Shown here: positions 49,009 through 63,751 of the stretch, in pieces
Position numbering within the stretch: the stretch's first letter is position 1
Layout: each line of letters begins with the position of its first letter
Origin: Leptospira sp.
GTDB lineage: Bacteria > Spirochaetota > Leptospiria > Leptospirales > Leptospiraceae
Assembly: GCA_034439575.1 (NCBI GenBank)
Contig: JAWXAQ010000007.1
Coordinates: 288,454 to 352,453, forward strand
Direction: 5' to 3'
Length of the DNA: 64,000 nucleotides
The notes under the pieces: generated by a model
The model's database searches: none
What the model was told of the DNA's origin: nothing
What the model saw: the letters and a program-made list of their open reading frames with translations, nothing else
Program-made: the position numbers and the translations under genes

Positions 49009-49078
49009 TGTTTAGGTCAAAGTCTTTTCCGTTTACCCTACCGACGATTCCCTGGAAAAAAACCAATTGTTGGTCTAT

Positions 49079-52060
49079 ATGAAAAAACTCATCACATTTG
49101 CATCGCTTACGATCTCTCTTTTACTTCCTTTTGCTATTTGGTCGCAGGCTACCGGTTCGATCAAAGGTACTATCATTGATTCCGAAAATGGAGAAGCCGT
49201 ATTTGGCGCGACGATAGTCGTTCGTTCCGAAAAGAAATTCGCAAAAACAGACTTTGACGGAAAATATTCCTTAGATCTTGCTCCAGGCAATTACCAAGTT
49301 GAATTCCAAATGTACGGTTATGGTCCGCAGACAAGATCCATCACAGTTTCGCCTGGAAAATCAGTAACACAAAATGTTACCTTCGGTGCGCAAACTTTAG
49401 AAACTGTGGAAGTAAAGGATCGAGCTATAAATGAATCCGATTCTGCACTCCTTAATCTCCAAAGAAAATCTGCCACTGTATCTGATGGAATTGGATCCGA
49501 GTCGATCAAAAAGTCTCCCGATTCATCTGCTAGTGAAGTAGTTCGTCGGGTCACAGGAATTACGTTAGTTGGTGGTAAATTTGTATTTGTTCGAGGACTT
49601 GGAGAAAGATATTCTTCGACATATCTAAATGATGCTTATATTCCTTCTACGGAACCTGACAAACGTGTGGTGCCGTTGGATTTGTTTCCAGCGTCTTTGA
49701 TTAAAAATATTCGAATTATTAAATCGTTTGTTCCTGAAGAGTCTGGTGAGTTTTCAGGCGGACTTGTTAAAATTGAAACCAAAGACTATCCTGATCAATT
49801 TTTTATGAATGTCGGTGTAGGCATCGGGATGAATGCAAACACAACACGAAATAAATGGCTGACTTTTAATGGTGGAGATTTTTTCGGAAGACCAACAGCT
49901 AGCCAGGAATTGCCAAGTATTGTAAAATCCGTACCGGATGTACTTCCTTTTGAACCAGGAAATAGATTCGGTGGAATCCCTTCGCAATTAGTTGGGATTG
50001 GAGCTGCAACATTTCCTAGCAATTGGAGTTCAGAAGAGACGAAGGCACCTTATGATCGGAACTTTAATTTCTCAACTGGAAATACATTTAAACTAACAGA
50101 AACAGGACAAAGACTAGGCATTATTTTCGGAACGACACATTCTGTTGATTATCGTTTTAGAAGACAAAAAGATGTTAGATACATTCCTGGAAATCCTATT
50201 GCCACTACATTTACTGACCTAACAACGATTTCTCCATTACAATCACAAAATGCTGATATTTACGTAGAAGAGCGGTTATTCGGTAACAATTTAAATTTAA
50301 ATTATGAGCCAATGACGGGACAACAGTTCTTTTTAAAGAACTTTTATTCTGTGTCTTCGGAAAAAACCGTTAGAGAAGCACAAGGTTTTAACAATATTGA
50401 CACTTTTGAATTTTTTTCACAGACTCATGATTTTATAAGTCGTCAACTATTTAACAGTTCGTTAGGTGGAAAACATGCAATTAATCTGTTCGGTGCAAAT
50501 CGTCCTCATACATTAGATTGGCAGGCAAATTTAGGGGAAGCAAAACGTGACGAACCAAATTTGACTCAACAAGTTTGGCGAAGACCACAAGGTGCCAATC
50601 CAACTACCATTCCTACTCGTCTCGGAAACAACCCAGATGGATCAAGATTTTATTCAAACGCGACGGATACCGTTAGAAGTGCCTCTGTAGCATATGAAAT
50701 TCCATTTGACCAATGGAATGGATTAAAATCCACATTTAAGTTTGGTGGTAGTGCTTTAGATCGTTTTAAATCTTTTAAGTTTCGTGAATTTGGATCAAAA
50801 TCAAACACTGGAGTTGGTACAGCCGATTCATATTTAGTACCTGGTGAAATTGTCTACAATCCTGCAGAATATCTTCGTAGCAATTCTAATGGCCTACCTA
50901 ACAAAACATTTTCTGAACGTCAGGTGGAACCAAACGCTTATGATGCGTTTCAAAAATTACATAGTTTTTTTGGTCAGGTCGATATTCCCATAGTTTCAAA
51001 AGTTCGATTTATCGGTGGTGTTCGTTACGAAGATTCCTATCAGTATGTTAAGACATTCGTTTTAAAAGATCAGTGGAATGGAGCAAAGCCAACTTACGGA
51101 TGTGATACGAAAAGTGAATATGAAAGATTGGCATTAGTAAATAGCAGAGCTTGTGCCGCTGACAATAATGGTATTGGTGAACTCAGAACAAGAGACAAAT
51201 TACCTAGTGCTAACTTCGTTTATGAATTTTTAAAAGATCAAAATTTACGCTTTGGGTATTCTGAAACTGTAACAAGACCGGATTTTAGAGAATTATCTCC
51301 ATTCGCATTTACTCCGTTCTTCGGGGCAGATAGGATACGCGGAAATTCTGACTTAAACCGAACCTACATCCATAACTATGACTTTCGTTGGGAATGGTAT
51401 ATGGGAGCTACAAATTATGTAGGTGCTGGTGCGTTTATGAAGGACATGTCAAATCCTATCGAAACAATCGGTCAACCAGTGGCCGGCCAAGTATCACCTT
51501 TCTTTACTTATGCGAATGCAGGCAAAGCAACGATTCGCGGTGTTGAGATTGATTTCAGAAGAGAATTTTTTGATAAAATCCGTTTTGAAACAAACTTTTA
51601 CTTTATCAAATCACTCGTAAACGTAGTTTCTTGGGAACAATTTACCATTGGACGAGCTGGACTTTTAGATCGAAATGATCGAAGTTTTTCTTATGATCCA
51701 ACTAACATTAGACGATCATTGCAAGGTCAATCAGACTTCGTGGCAAACCTTAAATTCGATGTCTTTATCACAAAAGCCAAAGATATGACGATCGGTTTAT
51801 ACTATAATTATTTTGGTGATAGGATCTATGTGGTGGGTGCTAATGGTACACCAGACTCTTACGAAAAAGGCGTGGGTATTACAGATTTAGTTTATTCAGC
51901 AAAGAAAGACGACAAATTAGATTTTAAATTTGCCGCACGTAATATCTTTGATCAGAGATTTAGAATATATGTGAGAGACGAACTATTGAACGAAGAAAAA
52001 CTTTTCCGTTCCTATCGGGAAGGTGTTTCGTTTTCAATGTCTGCAACGTATAAATTCTAA
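49079..52060 (+). CDS. TonB-dependent receptor with N-terminal carboxypeptidase-regulatory-like domain
   Basis: Signal peptide, [17 protein letters not shown], plug VRGLGERYS...PLDLFP...[16 protein letters not shown], barrel ending YKF. Confidence 0.93.
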
Positions 52061-52070
52061 AAGGAACTTT

Positions 52071-52880
52071 CTATTTTACTGAATCTGCATTTAACATAAT
52101 TGGCATTCCGTCCTTGCCACTTGGCATGATGATCAATTTGTTATTTGGATTCTCTACAGCTTTTAGTTGGATGTATTTTTGTGTAATGGATTCAGCTAAA
52201 AGTTTTTGTGCCTTTGCTTGTGCTTCTGCTTCGATGAGGATCGCTTTTGCTTTTCCTTCAGATGTTATAATTTGAATTTCTGCATCACGTTTAGCGATGT
52301 TAATTTCAAATTTCATTTGTTCCTGTTCTTGTTGTTTTGTTAATTTTGTTTCTATGGCTCTTAAAATGGAAGGGCTATACTCTACATCATCAATGATCAC
52401 ATCATCAATATCGACGTGTTTGTTGGAAAGTTTTTCGACAAGATTCTTTTTAATTTGAATCGATACGTTAGGTGTCTCCTTGGAGATAGAAACCATGTTG
52501 TATGCAGATAATATATTTCGGATAGATGTTCGAAATTGTGGGCGGACTACTTTTTCGTAATAGTCAGTTCCGATCTCCATTTGTAATTCATAAAGTTCAT
52601 TTTCTTTCGCTCGCGCTATCAATTGAGCCGTCACGACAATCGTTAAATCATCTCGAGTTAAAACTTCAACTTTTTCTTGGTAAGATCTCCATTGAATCGA
52701 ATACGTATAAACACTGTTCCACGGGAGATAAAATTGCACTTTGGAATCAAGTGGCTTTTGTCCAAGACCACTGCTATAAGGTTTCCACATCAATCCGACT
52801 TCACCTGGATCAATGATAGTGATACAATTGGAAAGAAGGAAGGAGACAAGCGAGATAGCAAAAAATAGTCGACGGTTCAT
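52071..52880 (-). CDS. SPFH/prohibitin (band 7) family protein
   Basis: IIDPGEVG, VLTRDDL, AIETK...EQE, AEAQAKA coiled coil, YIQLKA; LSNC lipobox-like. Confidence 0.9.
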   Translation of the reverse strand: MNRRLFFAISLVSFLLSNCITIIDPGEVGLMWKPYSSGLGQKPLDSKVQFYLPWNSVYTYSIQWRSYQEKVEVLTRDDLTIVVTAQLIARAKENELYELQMEIGTDYYEKVVRPQFRTSIRNILSAYNMVSISKETPNVSIQIKKNLVEKLSNKHVDIDDVIIDDVEYSPSILRAIETKLTKQQEQEQMKFEINIAKRDAEIQIITSEGKAKAILIEAEAQAKAQKLLAESITQKYIQLKAVENPNNKLIIMPSGKDGMPIMLNADSVK

Positions 52881-52905
52881 AATAATAACCTACACTTAAT
52901 GGAGA

Positions 52906-53400
52906 ATGTTTTCAATACCTTTGTTAGACCGAAGTTCAGGGAAATTAACTTTTATTCTCCTTTGTCTGGTGTTTTGTCTCCCGAATTGCCAAAATGATGA
53001 AACAGTCAAAAAGGATCTCCCGAAGCAGGAGATTGTTTTTTTTCAAGCCATTGACCAAGGCGATTATGAAAAAGTTCAAAAAATGCTAAACGAAGGATTT
53101 CCGATCAATAAAAAAGATACGTATGGAAATTCCGCGCTGATTCGAGCTGTTGACCAAGAAGAAACCAAAATAGTTCAATTATTACTTGATAAAGGTGCCA
53201 ATCCGAATCTGAGAAACACGGTGGGCGAAACGGCACTATACAGGGCTGTTTTTCGGGGTAATTTTTCTCTCGTGAAGTATTTGGTGGAGAAAGGAGCAGA
53301 GACAAAAATAAAAAATATTGAAGGAGTCAGTCCTGTGCAACTCGCAGATGATAGAGGCGAAGATGCCATCCAAAAATATCTGGAAAGCCTTAACAAGTAG
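52906..53400 (+). CDS. Ankyrin-repeat lipoprotein
   Basis: GNSALIRA, LLLDKGANPN, GETALYRA, YLVEKGA; LPNC lipobox. Confidence 0.88.
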   Translation: MFSIPLLDRSSGKLTFILLCLVFCLPNCQNDETVKKDLPKQEIVFFQAIDQGDYEKVQKMLNEGFPINKKDTYGNSALIRAVDQEETKIVQLLLDKGANPNLRNTVGETALYRAVFRGNFSLVKYLVEKGAETKIKNIEGVSPVQLADDRGEDAIQKYLESLNK

Positions 53401-53488
53401 TACGCCCAAAAGATTTCATAAATAATACTCGATTTTTTAAAACATTCCTAAATACTTTTGAGTTTTACAGAACTCAAGGAATTCTTTT

Positions 53489-53734
53489 ATGCCAGCATCT
53501 CCTTTAAAGAATTTAGCACTTAGTGAAAATGGATTTGTTTTTGATCCATCCAGTGGCAATACGTTTATTTTAAATGAAACTGCCCTAAGTATTGTTAAAC
53601 TATTAATTCAAGAAAAAACTAAAGAAGAAATATTAACTCACCTTATTAAAGAGTATGATACAAATTCGGAAGAATTGGAGCGAGATTATTCTGATCTAAC
53701 GATACAATTACGAGAATTAGGCTTAATTGAATGA
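53489..53734 (+). CDS. PqqD family / RiPP recognition element (RRE) protein
   Basis: 81 aa; FVFDPSSGNTFILNETALSIVKLL...EEI...LIKEYD...LERD...LRELGLIE (three strands plus three helices, PqqD pattern). Confidence 0.85.
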   Translation: MPASPLKNLALSENGFVFDPSSGNTFILNETALSIVKLLIQEKTKEEILTHLIKEYDTNSEELERDYSDLTIQLRELGLIE

Positions 53735-54777
53735 ATAGACCCGTGGTTGCTGTCTCTGGAATGAGTGCAGTAGATAGTCCAGCACCTGGCGTACCCGTAT
53801 TGCGCTCGTTAAAGGAATCTAAGCTAGACCCTGTACTCATTGGACTATCTTATGGAACTTTGGAACCGGGCAATTTCATGACAGAATTATTGGAAAATTC
53901 TTATATTATGCCTTATCCCAATTCTGGGCCTCAAGTATTGCTAGAAAGAATAAAAAATATTCACAGTAAACAAAAGTTAGATGTTATTATACCGACTCTA
54001 GATTCAGAATTGGAAAATTATATTTCTATTCAGTCCGAATTATCTCAAATGGGAATTCGAATGACCTTACCTGGTAAAAAGGAATTACATACTAGAGATA
54101 AAACTTTTTTGAATGAAACTTTTAAACAAAGCGAAGTTCTTCTACCTGAAACAATTGCTATCAATGATATAACAGCACTTCGGCAAGTTGCAGATGAAAT
54201 CGGATATCCTGTGCTAATAAAAGGAATCTTTTATGAAGCATATCTTGCACGAACATATGAAGAAGCAGTTGGATTTTTTTATATGTTAGCTTCAAAATGG
54301 GGAATGCCAATTATCATTCAGAAATTTATTTCGGGAGAAGAGTGTAACGTTTGTGCATTGGCCAATCAGGGAACATTGACTGGTGCTGTGGTGATGAAAA
54401 AATTGTTTCTGACAGATAAAGGAAAAGCTTGGGCTGGTGTTACAATTAATAACCAAGAAGCACTCAAAACATCGGAAAAAATTTTAGAACAGATAGGATG
54501 GAATGGTGGTTGTGAATTGGAATTTATTGTGGAGAGTAGAACAAATAAAATGTATCTACTAGAAATCAATCCAAGATTGCCAGCTTGGGTATATCTTGCC
54601 ACTGCGGCTGGTCAAAATTTACCTGACGCTATTCTTAGAATGTCGTTAGGCGAAAACGTATTACCTTACAAAGATTATAAAATAGGTATGGTTTTTGTGC
54701 GTCATAGTTGGGATGAAATCATTCCCATGGATGCACTCGAATCTTTATCAATATACGGACAATTAAAAGAGAATTAG
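53731..54777 (+). CDS. ATP-grasp amidoligase (carbamoyl-phosphate-synthase-like)
   Basis: DVIIPTLDSEL, RDK, GYPVLIKG, IIQKFISGEE, ELEF, LLEINPR. Confidence 0.88.
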   Translation: MNRPVVAVSGMSAVDSPAPGVPVLRSLKESKLDPVLIGLSYGTLEPGNFMTELLENSYIMPYPNSGPQVLLERIKNIHSKQKLDVIIPTLDSELENYISIQSELSQMGIRMTLPGKKELHTRDKTFLNETFKQSEVLLPETIAINDITALRQVADEIGYPVLIKGIFYEAYLARTYEEAVGFFYMLASKWGMPIIIQKFISGEECNVCALANQGTLTGAVVMKKLFLTDKGKAWAGVTINNQEALKTSEKILEQIGWNGGCELEFIVESRTNKMYLLEINPRLPAWVYLATAAGQNLPDAILRMSLGENVLPYKDYKIGMVFVRHSWDEIIPMDALESLSIYGQLKEN

Positions 54778-54787
54778 AAAATATTTT

Positions 54788-56119
54788 ATGGAAAAAAAAA
54801 CTTATATCCGACCACAGATCCGAAAACAATACTTAGGTGCTTCAAATAAATTTGGAGGGTATACTCCTCCAGAAACTTTGTCTTCTATTGATGGAGTTTC
54901 GATTGAATCCCTTATAAAGGAATACGGATCTCCTTTATTTATATTTTCTGAATCCACGATCAAAAAGAAGGCACAAAGCTACAAACAAGCGTTTGAGTCT
55001 CGGTATCCACTTTTTCAACCTACTTGGTCGTACAAAACTAATTATCTCAATGCGATATGTAAAGTTTTTCATAAAGAAGGATTTTGGGCGGAAGTGGTTT
55101 CCTCTTTCGAATACCAAAAGGCCCGAAAGAACGGCATTCCTGGGAACAAAATCATATTCAACGGTCCTTATAAACCCTACCAAGCCTTGAAATTGGCGGT
55201 TTCTGAAGGAGCTAGAATTCATATAGATCATTTAGATGAAATTAAAGATTTACTTCAAATATCAGATGAACTCGGTAAAAAAATCGATGTAAGTTTGAGA
55301 ATTTCCATCGATACAGGAACCTATCCAACTTGGAGTAGATTTGGTTTTAATCTGGAATCAGGTCATGCTTTAGAAGCGGCAAGAAAAATAGCACATAGCA
55401 ATGGCAAATTGGCATTAGTTGGTGTTCATACTCATATCGGCACATTTATGTTAGATCCAAATTCATATAAACGTGCGGCTATAAAAGTCTCTGCTTTTTA
55501 TAAAACTTTGCGTGATGAACTCAGACAACCTATGACATACATTGACTTAGGTGGCGGTTTTGTATCGGCGAGTAAATTAAAAGGTTCTTATCTTTCAAAT
55601 GCCTCCCTTTTGCCAAATTTTGATCAATATGCAGAAGTTATATGTGCAGCTCTTTATGATTCTTTTTCACCAGAGCAACCGCCAGCTTTATTTTTAGAAT
55701 CAGGTAGAGCTCTTATTGACGAAGCCGGATACCTTGCAAGTACAGTCGTCGGTATCAAAACATTACCGACAGGTAAACGAGCGATGGTCATTGATGCAGG
55801 TGTAAATCTTCTTTATACGAGTACTTGGTATGATTATAATATATCACCAATCAAAGAGTATACGAAAGTATATGAAGATGTGATTCTCTATGGACCATTA
55901 TGTATGAATATTGATGTCGTTAGAGAAAGTTGTCTATTACCTAACATAACTCGAGGAGAAAGTATCGTTATACATCCAGTAGGTGCTTATAATGTAACAC
56001 AATGGATGCAGTTTATAGAAATGAGACCGGCAATTGTAATGATTTTATCAAATGGCGAAATTAAACAAATACGAAAAAGAGAAAATGTAGATGATATCAA
56101 TCATATGGAGTTAGAATGA
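54788..56119 (+). CDS. PLP-dependent fold-III (diaminopimelate/ornithine decarboxylase-like) enzyme with N-terminal extension
   Basis: YGSPLFI, WSYKTN (PLP Lys), EVVS, IIFNGPYK, SRFG, HTHIG, DLGGGF, ESGR, GPLC, GAY. Confidence 0.88.
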   Translation: MEKKTYIRPQIRKQYLGASNKFGGYTPPETLSSIDGVSIESLIKEYGSPLFIFSESTIKKKAQSYKQAFESRYPLFQPTWSYKTNYLNAICKVFHKEGFWAEVVSSFEYQKARKNGIPGNKIIFNGPYKPYQALKLAVSEGARIHIDHLDEIKDLLQISDELGKKIDVSLRISIDTGTYPTWSRFGFNLESGHALEAARKIAHSNGKLALVGVHTHIGTFMLDPNSYKRAAIKVSAFYKTLRDELRQPMTYIDLGGGFVSASKLKGSYLSNASLLPNFDQYAEVICAALYDSFSPEQPPALFLESGRALIDEAGYLASTVVGIKTLPTGKRAMVIDAGVNLLYTSTWYDYNISPIKEYTKVYEDVILYGPLCMNIDVVRESCLLPNITRGESIVIHPVGAYNVTQWMQFIEMRPAIVMILSNGEIKQIRKRENVDDINHMELE

Positions 56120-58221
56120 AAAATTCCCTTAAGACAGTTGGGATTTCGACACTTTCTGCCTATTCTACAGTATTGTTTAGCGGTAGTCCGATTTTAGGAT
56201 TTTTAATTTTTTGTGCTACACTTTTTAATCCACCTGCTGCATTGACTGGATTGCTTGGCATATTATTTTCAAATTTTCTGGCCTTATTTTTAGGCGTTTA
56301 TGAAGAACGAATTCGAAAAGGCCTATATGGCTTTAATGGTTTGTTAGTCGGACTTTCTGTTAGTATTTATCATCAAGTAGATTTAAATTTGATAATAATA
56401 TTACTAGCGGCGATAATTTTATTAGTATTTGTCACTCTTTCTCTTGAGTATATACTGTCCTATTTTTTTGGTTTGCCTGTGTTATCACTTCCATTTGTGA
56501 TCGTGAGCATCATTTTATACTTGTCTTTTTATGACTATAAAGGATTAACCAACAAACAAGCATATGTCTTTCCATATGACAATTTGTTTCCTGAAATACC
56601 TTACTATATACTTTATTATTTAAAAAGTTTGGGAGGTATATTTTTTCAATCAAGTCCATGGTCTGGATTATGTATCGCCATCATACTTTTAATATCGAGT
56701 CGCATAGTTTTTTTATTATCTGTGTTAGGTTTTGGCTTGGGTTTGACATTCCATATTTTTTTAAATGGAAATTTGGATGGTATCGCGATAGGAAATGTTG
56801 GATTTAATTATATCCTTACATCCATCGGCGTTGGTGGTTATTTTTTAATCCCAAGTCCATATACTTTTATATTGGCAGGCTTTTCTGCGATTGCAAGCGC
56901 ACTCGTATCTTCTTTCACAAAAGTATTTTTAGTCCAATTTAATGTTCCCGTTTTTGCTCTACCATTTGCAACTGTTACACTTTTGTTTATTTATGTAGCA
57001 AGACTTCTCAGAAATCCAAAATTTATTTTTGTCGATTTTCCTCCAGGATCCCCGGAAAGAAATTTAGATTATTTTAAAACTAGATTGAAACGATTCGGAG
57101 ACAATGGCGCCTATATTCGTCTTCCTTTTTCTGGAAAATGGCAAGTTAGCCAAGGTTATAATGGTAAGTATACTCATAAGGATTCATGGAAAGAAAGTTT
57201 GGACTTTATGGCTGTTGGACCTGATGGCAAACTTCGTAAAGGAAATGAGAATGCGATGGGCGATTTTTATACTTACGGACTGAATGTTCTTTCACCATCC
57301 TATGGTCGAGTGATCAAAGTGATTAATCATATCGAAGACAATCCGATCGGAAGTGTGGATACAAAAAATAATTGGGGAAATTTGGTTTTAATAGAACATG
57401 CCCCTTATTTCTATTCTCAAATTTCTCACCTCCAAAAAAATAGCATTGTTGTCAAGGAGGGAGATATAATCCAAGCAGGGACCAAAATTGGTTTGGCCGG
57501 AAACTCTGGTAGAAGTTTGGAACCGCACATTCATCTTCATTTCCAATCTACACCAGAAGTGGGGAGTTCAACAATCCCGATTACCTTTACTCAGTACCAA
57601 GATGAATCAGAAAGCAAAATTCAAATTAAATTTAATTCAATCCCTAAAGAAAGAGAAATTGTTAATAATTTATCACCTGATTTTAATTTAAAAAATTTCT
57701 TTTTGCTTTCGCCCGGAGAAACGTTTAAGATAAAATTTGAAATGGTAGGTAAGAGTATCTATGAGGATGTTTGGAAAGTGAATTTGGATTTAATGGGAAA
57801 TCGCTACATTGAAGATGATAGAAACAATCGACTTTATTTCATTTCTTCCTTAGATTATTTTGCTTGTTTAGATTATATTGGAAAAAAGAAAACCAGTCTG
57901 TTTTTCTTTTTTTTAGCAGCATATAGAATTCCTTATGTAAGAAATCAAAGTTTTTTCGAAGATCAAATTTCTTATAAACCATTTTCAAATATTTTTATTA
58001 GATTTTTAAAAGATTTAATTCATCCTTTTAGCGAAACTGTAGGCTTTCAATGGAAAAGTAAACTTAAAGAAATTGATAATACGATTAAAATTGAATCTGA
58101 AGTTATCGGTAGGTCAAATAAACCGATATATGAAATTTCACTTGATCCAAGTAAGCTGATGCCTGGTGAAATCAATGCTCGTGATTTATTCGGCAATGAA
58201 TGGATTCTTAGCAAAATATGA
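56116..58221 (+). CDS. Urea-transporter-family membrane domain fused to M23 peptidase-like domain
   Basis: About 10 TM with GLYGFNGLLVG, PVLSLPFV, VGFNYIL, PVFALPF duplicated UT signatures; then LPFSGKWQVSQG, WGNLVLIEH, SHL, VKEGD, GNSGRSLEPHIH. Confidence 0.85.
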   Translation: MKNSLKTVGISTLSAYSTVLFSGSPILGFLIFCATLFNPPAALTGLLGILFSNFLALFLGVYEERIRKGLYGFNGLLVGLSVSIYHQVDLNLIIILLAAIILLVFVTLSLEYILSYFFGLPVLSLPFVIVSIILYLSFYDYKGLTNKQAYVFPYDNLFPEIPYYILYYLKSLGGIFFQSSPWSGLCIAIILLISSRIVFLLSVLGFGLGLTFHIFLNGNLDGIAIGNVGFNYILTSIGVGGYFLIPSPYTFILAGFSAIASALVSSFTKVFLVQFNVPVFALPFATVTLLFIYVARLLRNPKFIFVDFPPGSPERNLDYFKTRLKRFGDNGAYIRLPFSGKWQVSQGYNGKYTHKDSWKESLDFMAVGPDGKLRKGNENAMGDFYTYGLNVLSPSYGRVIKVINHIEDNPIGSVDTKNNWGNLVLIEHAPYFYSQISHLQKNSIVVKEGDIIQAGTKIGLAGNSGRSLEPHIHLHFQSTPEVGSSTIPITFTQYQDESESKIQIKFNSIPKEREIVNNLSPDFNLKNFFLLSPGETFKIKFEMVGKSIYEDVWKVNLDLMGNRYIEDDRNNRLYFISSLDYFACLDYIGKKKTSLFFFFLAAYRIPYVRNQSFFEDQISYKPFSNIFIRFLKDLIHPFSETVGFQWKSKLKEIDNTIKIESEVIGRSNKPIYEISLDPSKLMPGEINARDLFGNEWILSKI

Positions 58222-59738
58222 AAAAGTACATTCTAATATTATTAATGCTGAATGTTGTTTCAGTCTTCGCCCAAGAAAAATCAAATATACAGTTAGACAA
58301 AAAAAAATATTATGAAACGATTCAAAATTTGGACAAAGCTATCACAATCGAACCAAATTCTGGCATTTTATATTTGAATCGTGCTTATGCACTCATGATG
58401 ATAGGTTCTTATGAAAAGGCTCTATTGGATTACAATGTAGCTTATGAAAAGACTTTGGCCTTTGATGCCTTGGTGGGAATTCAATGGGCAGAATTTTCAT
58501 TAGAACATTATGAAAAATCCATTTTAATCGGAGAACAAATCTTAGACCAAGTGCCTAATCATTATTATGTGCTTTATCGCATGGCTGAAGCATATTTTTT
58601 TCTAAAAGATTATTCTAAAGCCTACCAATTTTACGGTGAACTCATAGACTCTCATGGAGAAACGGGATATTTAGTTTGGAAAAAAGGTTTATCAGCGTAT
58701 TACTTAGAAAATTATATCAAGGCGGATGCTTTATTTAAACGAGCCTATGCCTTAGAACCAAGTCATCCAGGTATTGAATATTCATATAACAATTCAAAGG
58801 TGTATCCATATTTTGTGATCAATCCTGAAATAACATCATTCCAATTTAAAGGTTCTGATTTTTTAGGTAAAGGGGAACGAGCAGGTATTAATATCGGAAT
58901 TGGTTTAGATTCGGATTGGTCATTTCGTGTTGGTGCTTCTCGCGATGTGACACAAAATCTAAATTCGTCAAAAGGTGTAGAAAATTATTTTTTTGACCCA
59001 TTGGCATTTGTGTATTATAATTATTATAGATATACACCAGCTAACATAGGTACTTATATTACTCAGCCTATTAATTTGTACAACGTCAATAACCTATTAT
59101 CAGAAGAAAACTATGTGACAAACAAAGGATCACTTGGTATCACATATCGCCTTTCAGAGAAATATTCTTTGTCTACTTCTGGAAATTATTTGAGTTCAAA
59201 TTCAAAATATCTGCATGGAGGAGGGACAGGTCAAATCGGAATAGTCTATACTAACTTCTATTCAATGGGATTTAATCTAAGTGCGATTTCTCATCCGCAA
59301 AGTAAAGGTGGGCAAGGATCTTACTTTTTCTCGATTCCATTTTTTGAATATTTTTATTCTACTTCCACAATTACAGGTCAATCAATGAAAGTTGATAGCA
59401 GTGAAATACAATTTTATTCACTATCCCCACCATCAACGTATACTGAAAATATAACTAGAAGTAGAAATTATGGTTTTTTCCAACAGGAATTTGGTTTTAA
59501 TTCTAAATACTTTTTTACAAGTCTTGGTGGGCGAGTGGGCAAAGCTAGAAACCCACTTTTTGGTGAATCTTGGATTTATCCAGGGTTTGACTTGTTAAAT
59601 GGTGGTTACGGAAGGATTGGTGTAAGATATTCTAGTTTTACATTGCAAGTTGATGTAAGTCGTGATTTTTGGCTAGATTCACGTAATGATCGTCCAGTTT
59701 CAGATACAATAAAACTTAGTTTAGTAGGTGCATTTTGA
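58218..59738 (+). CDS. Exported TPR protein with aromatic beta-rich C-terminus (possible outer-membrane barrel)
   Basis: Signal peptide (VFA-Q), TPR helices, alternating beta pattern, terminal Phe (LSLVGAF). Confidence 0.7.
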   Translation: MKKYILILLMLNVVSVFAQEKSNIQLDKKKYYETIQNLDKAITIEPNSGILYLNRAYALMMIGSYEKALLDYNVAYEKTLAFDALVGIQWAEFSLEHYEKSILIGEQILDQVPNHYYVLYRMAEAYFFLKDYSKAYQFYGELIDSHGETGYLVWKKGLSAYYLENYIKADALFKRAYALEPSHPGIEYSYNNSKVYPYFVINPEITSFQFKGSDFLGKGERAGINIGIGLDSDWSFRVGASRDVTQNLNSSKGVENYFFDPLAFVYYNYYRYTPANIGTYITQPINLYNVNNLLSEENYVTNKGSLGITYRLSEKYSLSTSGNYLSSNSKYLHGGGTGQIGIVYTNFYSMGFNLSAISHPQSKGGQGSYFFSIPFFEYFYSTSTITGQSMKVDSSEIQFYSLSPPSTYTENITRSRNYGFFQQEFGFNSKYFFTSLGGRVGKARNPLFGESWIYPGFDLLNGGYGRIGVRYSSFTLQVDVSRDFWLDSRNDRPVSDTIKLSLVGAF

Positions 59739-60688
59739 GTTTATCAGATCAAACCGATTGGGGCAAATTACAGTCGTTACAGAAGGTATGTCGTCCAGGC
59801 TTAGAAATAATCATTCAAGGTGAATATCCCAAAAGTCTTTTTATCTTGTTAAGCGGTCGGTTGAGTGTTTATAGACATGGCATAAAGATATCCGAAATTC
59901 GTAAACGCGGCGATTATATAGGGGACATTGCGATGTTACTTAAATCGCCAGCAAGTGCTACCGCAAAAACTGAAACTGATATCGTTGTGATAGAGATAGA
60001 CTCATCCAATGTTCAAAAACTTCTACAACATAGCCCTGGAGTGATCATCGCTATGGCAAGAAAGATGGCAGAGCGCCTCGCTGATTTAAATAATAATTTT
60101 TCTCAGTTAGTTGATAAATCTTTCCGACCAGATTTAGTAAAAAGACTCCAAGAACACCAAAAAAGTATAACTGCACAAACTTCAGTGGTATTGAATTTAG
60201 ATGACTTAAAATCATATGCAAAAGATGTAAAAGACGGAACAAAAATTCTCACTCAAGGACAGGATCCGAGTGCGCTTTATATTTTAGTGAAAGGAACTGT
60301 CGAAATCTATAAAAATTCTAAAATGATCGCTGTTGAAGATGAACCTGGGTATTATTTAGGTGATGTGGCTATTTTGCGGGGGAAGCCATCTAATGCGAGT
60401 GTGGTTTCTCGCGGCAATGTGACTTTAATAGAGATTCCTCTGGAGAAAATTGAATCCTTTTTAAATCATTCACCACAAATTGCGCTATCGATCGCCGAAA
60501 AATTAGCTTTAAGAACATTAGCTATTAATGAATTATTTCTAGATTTGAAAGCAGAATTTATTAAAGAAACACAACATACTTCTAAAACATCTGCGAAAAA
60601 TCCAGAAGATGTTGCGAGTGAAAGAATGAAACATTTTGATCAAGTGGGAAAAGATATTATGGAACTTCTCAATATAGATTTGCACTAA
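59735..60688 (+). CDS. Tandem cyclic-nucleotide-binding domain protein without HTH
   Basis: Two repeats: QGE...LFILLSGRLSV...GDYIGDIAML...ASATA and QGQ...LYILVKGTVEI...YYLGDVAIL...SNASV. Confidence 0.82.
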   Translation: MSLSDQTDWGKLQSLQKVCRPGLEIIIQGEYPKSLFILLSGRLSVYRHGIKISEIRKRGDYIGDIAMLLKSPASATAKTETDIVVIEIDSSNVQKLLQHSPGVIIAMARKMAERLADLNNNFSQLVDKSFRPDLVKRLQEHQKSITAQTSVVLNLDDLKSYAKDVKDGTKILTQGQDPSALYILVKGTVEIYKNSKMIAVEDEPGYYLGDVAILRGKPSNASVVSRGNVTLIEIPLEKIESFLNHSPQIALSIAEKLALRTLAINELFLDLKAEFIKETQHTSKTSAKNPEDVASERMKHFDQVGKDIMELLNIDLH

Positions 60689-63600
60689 TCACTTTCCTAA
60701 CATTTCAAAGATACCATCCCAATCTTTCGCTACACCATCCGTTAGGTGCTTCTGGATACGCTCTATATAGAGTTCAAGCAACCTATCGTCTGGAAATTTT
60801 GTTAACATATTCTGAAAATCAAATAGAGCAGATTTAAAATCAGCATTTAGATATTTTTTGATCGCTATCTCTAGTTCTACTTTTGAGTCCAATTTTTGTT
60901 TGTAAGTTTCTTCGCTATCGGCGTCAAAAATTTCATATATTTCTATTGCAGCTTTTCTACCTTTGACTCTTACTTTATCCAAATATCGAATCGAATAATT
61001 TTCTGGATTTTGAATCTTCGAAAGAACTGCAGAACTAATGATCAGTGAAACTCCATAAAATTTTGTAAGTCCTTCTAGTCTTGCCGCCAAATTAACGTTA
61101 TCTGAAAATGCATCGCCTTGCATTCTATTGGATTCACCGATCATACCGACCATCATAAAGCCAGTATGGATTCCAAATCCTGATTTGATCGGCAAATAAC
61201 CTTTAATAATTCTCTTACTATTATAATTATTTAATTCTTTTAATTGGGCAATCGCTGAGTCTATAGCACTTTCCACATCTTTTTTATATACCGCCATGAT
61301 AGCATCACCCACATATTTTATGATGATACCGTCGTATTCTCTGACCTTAGGGCTAATCCTTTTAAAGTAAGCATTGACAAAATTAAAATTTTCTTGTGGT
61401 GTCATCGTTTCAGAAAGAGTCGTAAATGATCGAATGTCTGAAAATACAACAGCCATTTCTGTCGCAACGTTATCACCTAATAGTACATCAATGATACTTT
61501 CTTTGGATAACAATTTCAAATAATCACTCGGAACGAATCGAGCATAAGATTTATTTAAGTTTGAAATTACAAGGTGTGTTTTAATGCGAGTCAGCAATTC
61601 TTCCTTTTGAAAAGGTTTTGTTAAATAATCATTTGCCCCGCATTCAAAACCATAAACCAGATCACTGATAATATTTTTTGCCGTAAGTAGAATGATCGGC
61701 AAGGTTCCATGTGATTTAGTTTCTCGAATGATTTTACATACATCATAGCCAGACAATTTTGGCATCATAATATCCAACAGAACCAAATTAATTTCTGACT
61801 CTTTTAATATTTTGAGCGCCTCTTCCCCATTATATGCTTTGATAATATTATATCCAACAAGTGTTAAATGATTTTCTAATACTTGAATATTTATTTGTTC
61901 ATCATCAACTATTAATATAGTTTGATTTTTATTTATATCATTGGATATAGTTGGTACAATATCGGAATCATTGAAAAGGTTAGGAACTATATTGTTATTT
62001 ATAATTTGATTTGATTCTAAGGGTGATATTGGTAATTCAGATGATATGGGAATCGTAAAATAAAATTCACTTCCTTTTCCTAATTCAGACTCTAGCCAAA
62101 TTTTTCCTCCATGCAATTCGATTAATTTTTTTGAGATACTTAATCCAAGTCCTGTTCCTCCATAGTTTCTAGAAATGGATGCATCCACTTGTTCGAAAGA
62201 ATGAAAAATATTCTGAAATTGATCCTTAGGAATACCGATTCCTGTATCTGAAATTTTAATTTGTATAAATTGATTTGATATAGATTCTGATTCTATGATG
62301 ATATGACCTTGTTCAGTGAACTTTATCGCATTCCCGATTAAATTTAATAAAATCTGTTGTAAACGGTTTTCATCACCGAACACTATTGGCGAGGGTTCTG
62401 GAATCTTATTTACTAAAGATATTTTTTTTCCTGATATTAAATGTTCCGATAAGAGTAATACCATACTTACCAAAGAGCGAATATCAATAGGTTTTTGAGA
62501 AAGTATTAATTCTTTATTTTTCAACTTTGAAAAATCCAATATATCATTCACTAAATTGGATAATCTTTTACCGCTGATAGAAACTAATTTTAAATTACTT
62601 GTTGCAATATGATTTAAAGGTCCCGTTGCTCCGTCTAACATTGAATCTGCTATTCCTATGATTCCATTCAAAGGTGTTTTTAATTCGTGAGAAGTATTCG
62701 ATAAGAATTCATCTTTTAATTTGTCATTTCTTTCCAGATCATCAGCCATTCTATTAAAAGAATTTCCTAATTCACCAATTTCATCTTTTGAATCAACTTT
62801 CACTCTGACTTTCAGATTTCCTCGACCAAATTCTAAGGTGGCTAACTTAAGTTTGAGAATAGGTTTTATGGTTTTATTAGTTAGATAGTTAATTAATATT
62901 AATGTAAAAAGAATAATTGCAAATCCTAGCAGGAGAATATTATTTCTCAAATTTTTAATTGGCAGAAATGCAACTTCTTTCGGGAAATTTAGATAAAGAA
63001 TCCATCTATTTCCAGAATAATCTAAAAAGCCTTCTTCTTCCTTTTTAGAATTTATGTAATCGTCTGGATTTTTGATAATTTGATCAGATGTTATGTTTAA
63101 AAAATCAGTTTCAGAATTAGTAAGATGATTTGAATCCAATAATAGATTATTTTGTGTGACTAGATCAAAAAGAATGAATTTATTATCATCCAAAGTGCTA
63201 TACAGAATTTGACGCAAATTTCCCATCGAAATAAAACCCACAATAGCTCCATTTACGTTACCCTGCTTACTGAGTATGGGTGTGGCAAAGACGATGACTT
63301 TCTGTTTTAGATCTTCATCAAAATAAATATCATTTCCAGAAGAAGCATTCAAATATGAATAAACTTCCTGACTCCAAATTTGTGACTGACATTTTTTTCC
63401 AATACCAAGTCCAATTGTATCAACTAACTTAATGCAGTTTTTATCATAATATGATAATGAAATATATACTTTTTTTTGATTTCTAAAGGTGATTAATTTT
63501 TGAGTTATTTCTTCTATATTGGAAGGATTTTGAAAATTTGGATCACTGCTGAGAGTTGCTAAATCAGAAAATCGTTCGAACAAAACTCTATCGGTTTTAT

Positions 63601-63751
63601 CAAAGACATGGTTAGAAGTATCATCCAAAGAAATTTGAATTTGTTCTTCAACTTGGTTTACTGCAGAAATATAAACAAATGATGCTACAGTTATCAAAAT
63701 CATTAATGATAAGCTTAAAAAAGCTAAAAATAGTTTTGTTCTGAGTTTCAA
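60689..63751 (-). CDS. Hybrid sensor: Cache-like/HAMP/histidine kinase/receiver/class III nucleotidyl cyclase
   Basis: Two [82 protein letters not shown]. Confidence 0.93.

Follow-up and report, generated by a model that had tools for sequence, protein, structure and literature searches.

Can an enzyme carry, at its own N-terminus, the kind of recognition sequence by which lasso peptide precursors are bound? This question is raised by a stretch of 64,000 nucleotides from Leptospira sp. (assembly GCA_034439575.1, contig JAWXAQ010000007.1, positions 288,454 to 352,453 of the forward strand), which we call the window and in which the coordinates below are counted. The gene concerned encodes a 443-aa fold-III pyridoxal phosphate (PLP) decarboxylase of the clade that holds FigC and diaminopimelate (DAP) decarboxylase (54788-56119, plus strand), and stands third in an operon of closely spaced genes, all on the plus strand. 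It is preceded, at a distance of 10 nt, by the gene of a 348-aa ATP-grasp ligase (53731-54777, plus strand), the start of which overlaps by 4 nt the stop of a gene for an 81-aa PqqD-family protein (53489-53734, plus strand; PF05402). The latter protein resembles the stand-alone B1 proteins of lasso peptide clusters, that is, discrete recognition elements (RREs) of RiPPs, peptides that are made by ribosomes and modified after translation. We infer that the N-terminal tail of the decarboxylase, roughly its first 15 residues, is likely a built-in RRE recognition sequence, bound by the PqqD protein that is encoded two genes upstream.

Positions 54788-54859 (plus strand) translate to MEKKTYIRPQIRKQYLGASNKFGG, residues 1-24 of the 443-aa open reading frame (ORF). 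The NCBIfam models of LysA and FslC align to the decarboxylase only from residues 33 and 36, and relatives from the Protein Data Bank (PDB) align to the profile of the decarboxylase family only from positions 28-41. Since both the curated models and the solved relatives start at about 28-41, the first ~30 residues form an extension. A lasso-leader-like motif ahead of the LysA core was what a preliminary description of this DNA had noticed, and both the translation and the starts of these alignments confirm it. The extension (residues 1-33, 54788-54886, plus strand) is conserved, is predicted to be flexible and contains two blocks: i) a recognition block, Y6-I-R-P9-Q-I11 (54803-54820, plus strand), which matches [Y/W]xxPx[L/V/I/F/A], and ii) a second conserved block, G17-x-x-N20-K21-F22-G23 (54836-54856, plus strand), with an invariant Lys21. 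In a single sequence such a motif is weak evidence, because 17 of the 2601 ORFs of at least 200 aa in the genome (~0.65%) carry [YW]xxPx[ILV] in their first 16 residues.

The tail was kept in all of the best 120 homologues among 8000 candidates, from Leptospira ognonensis (88% identity) to Bacteroidota (51-54%). When 73 homologues down to 51% identity were aligned, P9 and K21 were present in every sequence (73/73), Y6 in 70 (W in the other three) and I11 in 66; in the second block, the counts were 68 for G17, 72 for N20, 70 for F22 and 71 for G23. Sixty tails read from genomic loci gave a similar picture, M1, P9, K21 and G23 each being found in 60/60, with the initiator Met always five residues before the aromatic residue. 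From this fixed Met it follows that the annotated start is right, that the tail is translated and that the motif lies at the extreme N-terminus. Conservation of YxxP among homologues, a check set beforehand, was therefore observed in both data sets, and the start codon lies upstream of the motif as had been assumed. The family pattern can be written as [Y/F/W]xxPx[I/L/V] followed by G..NKFG, F replacing Y at residue 6 in 11 of 161 locus pairs (see below). Trp at position 6 (TWVRP, TWQSP) was seen in a few homologues, three Leptospiraceae-like proteins and one other. In lasso systems, two RRE residues discriminate between W-type and Y-type leaders; the loci of the Trp variants were not recovered, as the metagenome relatives all had at most 64% identity and the Spirochaetota sample at most 65%.

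Mean column information amounted to 2.96 bits for tail residues 5-23, compared with 3.11 bits for the body of the enzyme. In the AlphaFold2 (AF2) monomer of the decarboxylase (mean predicted local distance difference test, pLDDT, 86.7), residues 1-30 are coil with block means of 61, 55 and 67, while residues 31-80 have a pLDDT of at least 94, the fold starting at residue ~33. A tail which is conserved yet predicted to be disordered alone is most simply a segment folding on a partner. The linker, residues 24-33, is the least conserved part of the tail (position 24 is G in 33 of the 73 homologues, T in 21 and S in 9); in Leptospiraceae, the second block reads NKFGG. The housekeeping LysA-like paralogue of the same genome (25% identity), which served as a control, has neither the tail nor a PqqD or ATP-grasp neighbour. 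At the DNA level, an inverted repeat with a 9-bp stem (54851-54873), marked in a scan for terminator-like sites, lies within the tail coding sequence (codons 22-29); such sites are no commoner than in shuffled sequence.

As for the presumed binding partner, a PqqD gene two genes upstream had been correctly recognised: it matches PF05402 with 48.2 bits (cut-off 23.4) over residues 17-80 and is separated from the decarboxylase by the ATP-grasp gene. It is the only PF05402 gene of the genome, in which no second PqqD gene was found. When a profile of 57 family members was compared with the PDB, the best matches were the lasso proteins TbiB1 (5v1u/5v1v, 1.5e-12) and TfuB1 (6jx3, 7.7e-9); PbaB1 (9x90) scored 5e-5, compared with 0.012 for PqqD (3g2b) and 0.029 for a chain of LppB (9x8z). 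The top six Foldseek matches were all complexes of TfuB1 or TbiB1 with B1 leaders (TM-score 0.76-0.81, root-mean-square deviation 2.0-2.7 A). According to DSSP, the AF2 model contains strands at residues 10-11 (two residues), 16-19 and 24-27 and helices at 30-40, 45-56 and 60-77, which is the winged-helix order of three beta-strands followed by three alpha-helices. The cut-off of the NCBIfam lasso model lasso_PqqD_Strm (NF033530) was missed (39.0 vs 70 bits). The model of the HPr-rel-A system PqqD chaperone (TIGR04353) was passed with 40.2 bits (cut-off 35), but this assignment was rejected, as no HPr-kinase family was found among seven cassette and flanking proteins; HprK-related kinases are what we take to define the HPr-rel-A system. 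Searches for PqqD fusions returned one 177-aa protein and none fused to ATP-grasp or decarboxylase, which is weak evidence.

How discrete lasso RREs hold their ligands is described in the available parts of two studies (PMC13381572, PMC12710340). They recognise [Y/W]xxPx[L/V/I/F/A], the leader forming a beta-strand within a cleft that has two hydrophobic pockets; an Asp (D70 in LppB, found also in actinobacterial B1 proteins) is hydrogen-bonded to the hydroxyl of the leader Tyr, and an Asn (N33 in LppB) fixes the kink of the leader at Pro. We mapped these cleft residues through an ungapped alignment with PbaB1 and counted them in the 57 family members. N29, equivalent to LppB N33, was present in 57/57 and D66, equivalent to LppB D70, in 51/57. 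The residues of the pockets were kept as well: Y56 in 53/57, I35 in 51/57, F, L or Y at position 70 in 57/57, L74 in 56/57 and L79 in 50/57. The nearest matches of the protein by sequence and predicted fold are thus two discrete lasso RREs, TbiB1 and TfuB1, and the cleft residues are kept.

The association of the two genes is not restricted to this genome. A scan with one genome per species gave 597 stretches with relatives of the decarboxylase, the best 80 of which were taken together with the locus itself. Of these 81 loci, PqqD was present in 72, ATP-grasp in 77 and a fusion of a urea-transporter-family channel with an M23 metallopeptidase domain in 78. The order was always the same, i.e. 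PqqD, ATP-grasp, decarboxylase, channel-M23 fusion and, in part, a tetratricopeptide repeat (TPR) or outer-membrane protein. Later, 30 loci from Bacteroidota, six from Spirochaetota and 80 from metagenomes were added, leading to 195 loci with a decarboxylase. At least 1500 nt of upstream sequence was available for 146 of them, and there PqqD was found in 143 and ATP-grasp in 145; two of the three loci lacking PqqD have exactly the minimum upstream flank.

At one pair of positions, the tail and the PqqD protein have changed together. The positions concerned, tail residue 6 and PqqD residue 66, correspond to the two partners of the hydrogen bond between Tyr hydroxyl and Asp in solved RRE-leader complexes. 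All six RREs without Asp66, first noticed among the 57, have partner tails with Phe at position 6. In 161 locus pairs, Tyr6 was accompanied by Asp66 in 150 and Phe6 by Ser, Tyr, Phe or His66 in 11, with zero exceptions. Column 66 alone of the 81 PqqD columns separates the Tyr and Phe groups (the next best leaves 56 sequences overlapping), as does column 6 alone of the 443 decarboxylase columns. Because only these two columns follow the split, it is not a general clade signature. If one partner of a hydrogen bond is lost, drift of the other is to be expected, and the Asp position indeed drifts once the Tyr hydroxyl is gone.

Corrected mutual information (MI), calculated over all 35,883 decarboxylase x PqqD column pairs, gave three high-ranking pairs that coincide with contacts predicted from the PbaB1-leader structure or are one residue away from them. 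The first rank is held by tail 15 with RRE 24, the next rung after the strand pairing described in the PbaB1-leader structure; the second by tail 4 with RRE 55, beside the backbone anchor of leader residue -18 on D68 of the same structure; and the fourth by tail 6 with RRE 66, the exact predicted contact. When the sequences were thinned to 90, 80 and 70% identity, the pairs (6,66) and (4,55) stayed in the top 3. Five of the top 12 tail x PqqD pairs lie within one residue of a predicted contact, compared with 0.65 expected, and only 0.07% of 2672 shifted contact masks reach five. Prediction of the complex, using the PqqD alignment and tail residues 1-36, gave 0.50, 0.51 and 0.50; controls with a replaced tail gave 0.02 and 0.02, while a control in which PqqD was replaced by an unrelated 92-residue protein gave 0.43, so that the required margin was missed. 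The preliminary description had proposed that the PqqD protein binds this tail, and the conserved YxxP, the B1-like RRE with its kept cleft and the covariation of Tyr6 with Asp66 all argue for such binding.

Several observations weigh against it, or at least limit what the covariation can bear. The perfect split of 161/161 pairs rests on one or two evolutionary events: when a tree was made from 101 decarboxylases with the tail columns left out, two changes sufficed to account for the Tyr/Phe state, and only one was enforced by branches with good support. With only one or two informative pairs, a sign test on independent pairs consequently has no power, and some of the metagenome loci may duplicate genome loci. 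Among the MI pairs, (15,24) drops to rank 935 at 70% thinning. The tolerance of one residue was picked after the top pairs had been seen, only (6,66) being an exact contact, and the list of contacts was derived from the text of the paper through a 26-bit alignment with PbaB1, not from a model of the tail-PqqD pair. The model of the PqqD protein itself has a pLDDT of only 68.9, the E-values of its Foldseek matches being 2e-3 to 8e-3. One locus (L031) keeps the tail with neither PqqD nor ATP-grasp in 6.7 kb upstream. Finally, the NKFG block is left unexplained by docking alone and might just as well belong to the active site of the dimeric enzyme. As for L031 (L031:6717-8075), this is a contig of a metagenome-assembled genome of Cytophagales, on which the decarboxylase gene is preceded by a co-oriented 486-aa ORF and by two large ORFs that run in the other direction; it may represent a split cassette or an assembly join.

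We also looked for another ligand of the RRE. The absence of a small precursor ORF nearby, asserted in the preliminary description, extends to the homologous loci: a conserved small ORF was looked for in vain in the 700 nt upstream of PqqD (72 loci) and among ORFs of at least 40 aa (81 loci). A word search of low sensitivity for short proteins (30-242 aa) sharing tail residues 1-45 found none, and translation of the 4.1-Mb genome in all six frames contains the composite tail motif a single time. When a profile made from 60 tails was run against 1.84 billion representative sequences, 144 matches were obtained, of which 78 continue into the decarboxylase core and six match the body; the remaining 60, short or chimeric pieces, have no remainder in common. 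The tail therefore appears to occur only in this decarboxylase family.

Genes of the lasso pathway were missing as well. The lasso B2 leader protease (transglutaminase core, PF13471) had no match at E <= 0.01 anywhere in the genome, the completeness of which is 99.98%. A lasso cyclase (asparagine-synthetase-like) was absent from the eight proteins of 52071-60688, to which this search was confined. Both absences had been stated in the preliminary description. The further expectation that the tail is not cleaved is supported by the missing B2 protease but is unproven; the operon encodes an M23 metallopeptidase domain, which had not been considered there. In the literature, no description of a cassette of PqqD, ATP-grasp and decarboxylase was found in a search that did not include the supplementary data of PMC12710340, where the RRE group is possibly listed; the available part of a paper on RiPP mining in Bacteroidales (PMC10352776) holds nothing relevant to the cassette.

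Based on these observations, the following model is proposed. The 81-aa PqqD-family protein would bind the tail in its beta3/alpha3 cleft, as lasso B1 proteins bind YxxPxL leaders. Tyr6 would enter the first hydrophobic pocket, where its hydroxyl would form a hydrogen bond with Asp66, Asn29 would hold the kink at Pro9, Ile11 would fill the second hydrophobic pocket and tail residues 12-15 would extend the beta-sheet of the RRE. Docking would bring the decarboxylase, in particular G17..N20-K21-F22-G23, to the ATP-grasp ligase. Such delivery is likely because RREs deliver peptides to a partner enzyme and because the RRE gene overlaps the ATP-grasp gene, the two being presumably coupled in translation. 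The second block, situated 6-12 residues past the recognition block, is where, by analogy, an RRE-bound peptide would meet the active site of the partner. An assembly of ligase and decarboxylase may be regarded as the minimal consequence of docking. In its scaffold version, the model assumes that the ATP-grasp enzyme would make an amino-acid conjugate and hand it directly to the docked decarboxylase. As for the channel and M23 domain, one can only speculate about a role in release and export of the product.

The nearest characterised relatives of the decarboxylase all act on amino-acid moieties that are joined to larger scaffolds. Its body consists of an Orn_Arg_deC_N barrel (PF02784, 3.1e-32, 112.3 bits) and a C-terminal sheet domain (PF00278, 4.7e-12, 46.5 bits), and it misses the cut-offs of both the LysA equivalog (TIGR01048, 218.2 vs 297.9 bits) and the FslC equivalog (NF041039, 225.8 vs 500 bits). 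It represents a distinct subfamily, so that the names under which the family appears in databases, diaminopimelate decarboxylase and alanine racemase, are probably wrong. The best solved relative is the N-citrylornithine decarboxylase FigC (7kh2, 2e-89); BtrK matches the family profile at ~1e-40. K83 (WSYKTNY) and C372 (GPLCMNID) are invariant in 73 sequences and align with the lysine of SVKTQ and the cysteine of PSCMQHD in FigC, i.e. the Schiff-base lysine and the active-site Cys loop. This loop reads C-M-N/Q-x-D in both the decarboxylase and FigC, in contrast to C-E-S-x-D in DAP decarboxylase. The clade comprises FigC/FslC, SbnH, AcsE, MccE, BtrK and DAP decarboxylase. According to the available part of PMC7857480, the members other than DAP decarboxylase act on amino-acid moieties held on citrate, a peptide-nucleotide or a carrier protein, and active sites of the alanine-racemase fold sit at the dimer interface.

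The ATP-grasp protein matches PF15632 (44.7 bits, cut-off 29.1) and PF02655 (29.8 bits, cut-off 23.2), none of the NCBIfam equivalogs reaching its cut-off. Its residues 278-282, E-I-N-P-R, represent an E-x-N-P-R motif, with the E-x-N of the Mg/ATP site, that is conserved in at least 95% of 161 sequences. Atlas look-ups of this protein and of the M23 part returned family names only.

The channel-M23 fusion (701 aa, 56116-58221, plus strand) begins with a 4-nt overlap with the decarboxylase stop. It combines PF03253 (6.8e-57) and PF01551 (2.1e-12) with a ~220-aa C-terminal domain of no known family. In the M23 domain, H353, D362, H438 and PH472xH474 are conserved and represent candidate metal-binding or catalytic residues, the first metal motif, TH...W..A.DF (H353...D362), departing from the canonical HxxxD spacing. 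No hydrophobic segment was found after residue 298. Because no membrane segment follows the channel, the M23 domain probably faces the cytoplasm, an orientation that builds on what we take to be the topology of urea transporters.

Instead of being merely docked, the decarboxylase might carry its own substrate. The RRE would hold the tail, the ATP-grasp enzyme would acylate the epsilon-amine of Lys21, using an amino acid's carboxylate, decarboxylation of the tethered residue would fall to the enzyme body or its dimer mate, and the M23 domain would release the product for export; the donor may be Glu or Asp, through the carboxylate of the side chain, or a diamino-dicarboxylate, through one of its ends. 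No conserved acidic residue was found in the tail, so that only the version with Lys as nucleophile is possible. We regard this course of events as possible but rather doubtful. K21 is invariant (73/73 and 60/60) and lies 10 residues past the recognition block, where RiPP enzymes act on an RRE-held peptide. Acylation of a lysine epsilon-amine is known from PylC, and BtrJ is reportedly the ATP-grasp enzyme that loads BtrI; the match to a PylC-like N-domain, however, stays below the cut-off (21.7 vs 27 bits, in a homologue). Among ~154,000 decarboxylase x ATP-grasp column pairs, the top one in corrected MI joins tail 19 (codon at 54842-54844) with ATP-grasp 283, just after E-x-N-P-R, and tail 15 with ATP-grasp 297 ranks fourth; yet the margin is small and barely above background, 0.56 for the top pair vs 0.50 and 0.48 for pairs of the enzyme body. 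The probable cytoplasmic location of the M23 domain, itself a matter of inferred topology, would suit a release step, and without recycling by a peptidase one carrier used stoichiometrically for a single turnover per enzyme would be wasteful. There are parallels for the chemistry, in that BtrK acts on Glu-S-BtrI and MccE on a peptide-nucleotide (PMC7857480, available part), and RRE-aided assembly of small molecules on ribosomal scaffold peptides is described for fosfazinomycin in the available part of PMC13622209.

It seems quite unlikely that the tail is an intrinsic element of the enzyme, for example a lid of the active site or an arm exchanged within the dimer, with a coincidental likeness to lasso leaders and a PqqD protein that serves an unrecognised peptide or has a non-peptide role with ATP-grasp. 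The NKFG block is conserved like catalytic residues, this fold has its active sites at the interface of the dimer (PMC7857480, available part) while the AF2 model is a monomer, the short motif has a chance frequency of ~0.65% per sequence and L031 retains its tail without a neighbouring PqqD. All of this would fit an intrinsic role. What such a role leaves unexplained is why residue 6 is tracked by a single PqqD column, and that the one homologous to the Tyr-binding Asp, why it is in the tail that decarboxylase and PqqD are coupled most strongly and why a complete Y-type RRE cleft is kept while no other ligand was found.

That the tail is a pro-sequence, cut off after RRE-guided processing, for instance by the M23 domain, with the enzyme being activated or a modified peptide (residues ~12-30) being freed, is highly improbable: a metallopeptidase domain is encoded directly downstream (4-nt overlap) and conserved in 78/81 loci, M23 enzymes cut at glycines and Leptospiraceae have NKFGG, but Gly24 is not conserved, the linker residues 24-33 being the least conserved of the tail and so offering no conserved cleavage site, the genome has no lasso B2 protease, and one peptide per 443-aa protein would be very costly.

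The cassette in which the putative docking pair is encoded has a patchy distribution. It was found in Spirochaetota, Bacteroidota, Ignavibacteriota and Myxococcota, with 31 of 401 sampled genomes of Bacteroidota and 7 of 401 of Spirochaetota containing it. Cassette orthologues were absent at E <= 1e-40 from 24 genomes of the same genus and 16 of the same order, and the cassette occurred in 0 of 30 genomes of the same-genus sample. In the decarboxylase tree, the Leptospiraceae sequences sit next to those of Myxococcota and other Spirochaetota. Together, the patchy distribution and this grouping suggest horizontal spread, and the cassette appears to behave as a mobile accessory module. Cultured organisms that have it are Pedobacter paludis, Pedobacter sp. 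GSP4 and Leptospira ognonensis, in which one can look for its product directly.

Downstream of the channel-M23 fusion, each gene overlaps the preceding one by 4 nt. A 506-aa TPR protein (58218-59738, plus strand), whose C-terminal part belongs to no known family, is followed by a protein with two cyclic nucleotide monophosphate (cNMP)-binding domains (59735-60688, plus strand). The Leptospira TPR protein corresponds to two genes in Bacteroidota, one for a 207-aa TPR protein (67 loci) and one for a 439-aa protein without a Pfam match (59 loci); examples of the split genes are L029:13483-14799 and L073:15955-16575. The start of the 439-aa protein resembles a signal peptide, and the protein may reside in the outer membrane. 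The double cNMP-binding gene neighbours the cassette only in Leptospiraceae loci (3/81), and the same is true of an ankyrin-repeat lipoprotein-like gene upstream (52906-53400; 1/81). Judged from sequence only, the flanks contain a 997-aa protein resembling a TonB-dependent receptor (49067-52060, plus strand) and a 1020-aa hybrid of sensor domain, histidine kinase, receiver and cyclase-like C-terminus (60689-63751, minus strand). A scan of the region for promoters and terminators gave signals no commoner than the shuffled expectation.

RREs are taken to mark RiPP pathways, and the search for their ligands is directed at small ORFs; in the present case, the recognition motif read by a B1-type RRE appears to lie on a full-size enzyme. 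If this is true, leader-RRE recognition would also serve to assemble enzymes or to let an enzyme carry its own substrate, a class of precursor-less 'orphan' RREs would be explained, and a ready-made, genetically encoded docking pair would be at hand. Were the decarboxylase indeed its own carrier, the cassette would represent a RiPP-style small-molecule pathway with leader, carrier and tailoring enzyme in one polypeptide. Apart from this, attention is drawn to a widespread decarboxylase subfamily that is probably something other than its present names, diaminopimelate decarboxylase or alanine racemase, indicate.

Known before is the B1-type RRE with its YxxPxL-type motif; new are the position of the motif at the N-terminus of a catalytic enzyme, the absence of precursor, protease and cyclase from the cassette and the occurrence in at least four phyla. 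The lasso B1 proteins TbiB1, TfuB1/FusB1 and PbaB1 are likewise stand-alone winged-helix PqqD-family proteins of ~80-90 aa, and they share the ligand motif [Y/W]xxPx[L/V/I] and the residues of the cleft, among them those of the hydrophobic pockets and the Asp that binds Tyr (PMC13381572, available part). They differ in that their ligand is a precursor of 30-50 aa, whereas here it is the N-terminus of a 443-aa enzyme, and in that the partner enzyme here is an ATP-grasp ligase. Unlike lasso clusters, the present system has no B2 protease in the genome, no cyclase in the cassette, no Thr at -2 and no core peptide. Closer in one respect is the LPP system (LppB/LppA), in which a B1-like RRE is reused outside the lasso pathway with an N-terminal YxxPxV motif. 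Residues N33 and D70 of LppB correspond to N29 and D66, and LPP precursors can be protein-sized (35-200 aa), which makes them the nearest precedent for protein-sized ligands. LppA, however, is a dedicated precursor that becomes polyphosphorylated, while the bearer of the motif here is a catalytic enzyme of the same operon (all from the available part of PMC13381572).

On the side of the enzyme, the rhizoferrin pair FigA/FigC (FslA/FslC) offers the same succession of a ligase and a fold-III PLP decarboxylase acting on the conjugate instead of the free amino acid. There, the ligase is an NIS synthetase (a siderophore synthetase independent of nonribosomal peptide synthetases), not an ATP-grasp enzyme, and there is no RRE. 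FigC also has no tail, only ~7 native residues preceding the aligned region, a count which assumes a tag offset of 19 residues inferred from the numbering of the catalytic Lys (K63 in the available part of PMC7857480, K82 in the deposited chain). In the butirosin system BtrI/BtrJ/BtrK, BtrK is again a fold-III decarboxylase that acts on a carrier-held amino acid (PMC7857480, available part), and FzmZ of fosfazinomycin exemplifies reuse of RiPP-type recognition for a small molecule built on a peptide (PMC13622209, available part). Both systems rely on a separate carrier protein or peptide with a thioester or C-terminal linkage, whereas in the Leptospira cassette the candidate carrier would be fused to the decarboxylase itself and would offer the side chain of a lysine.

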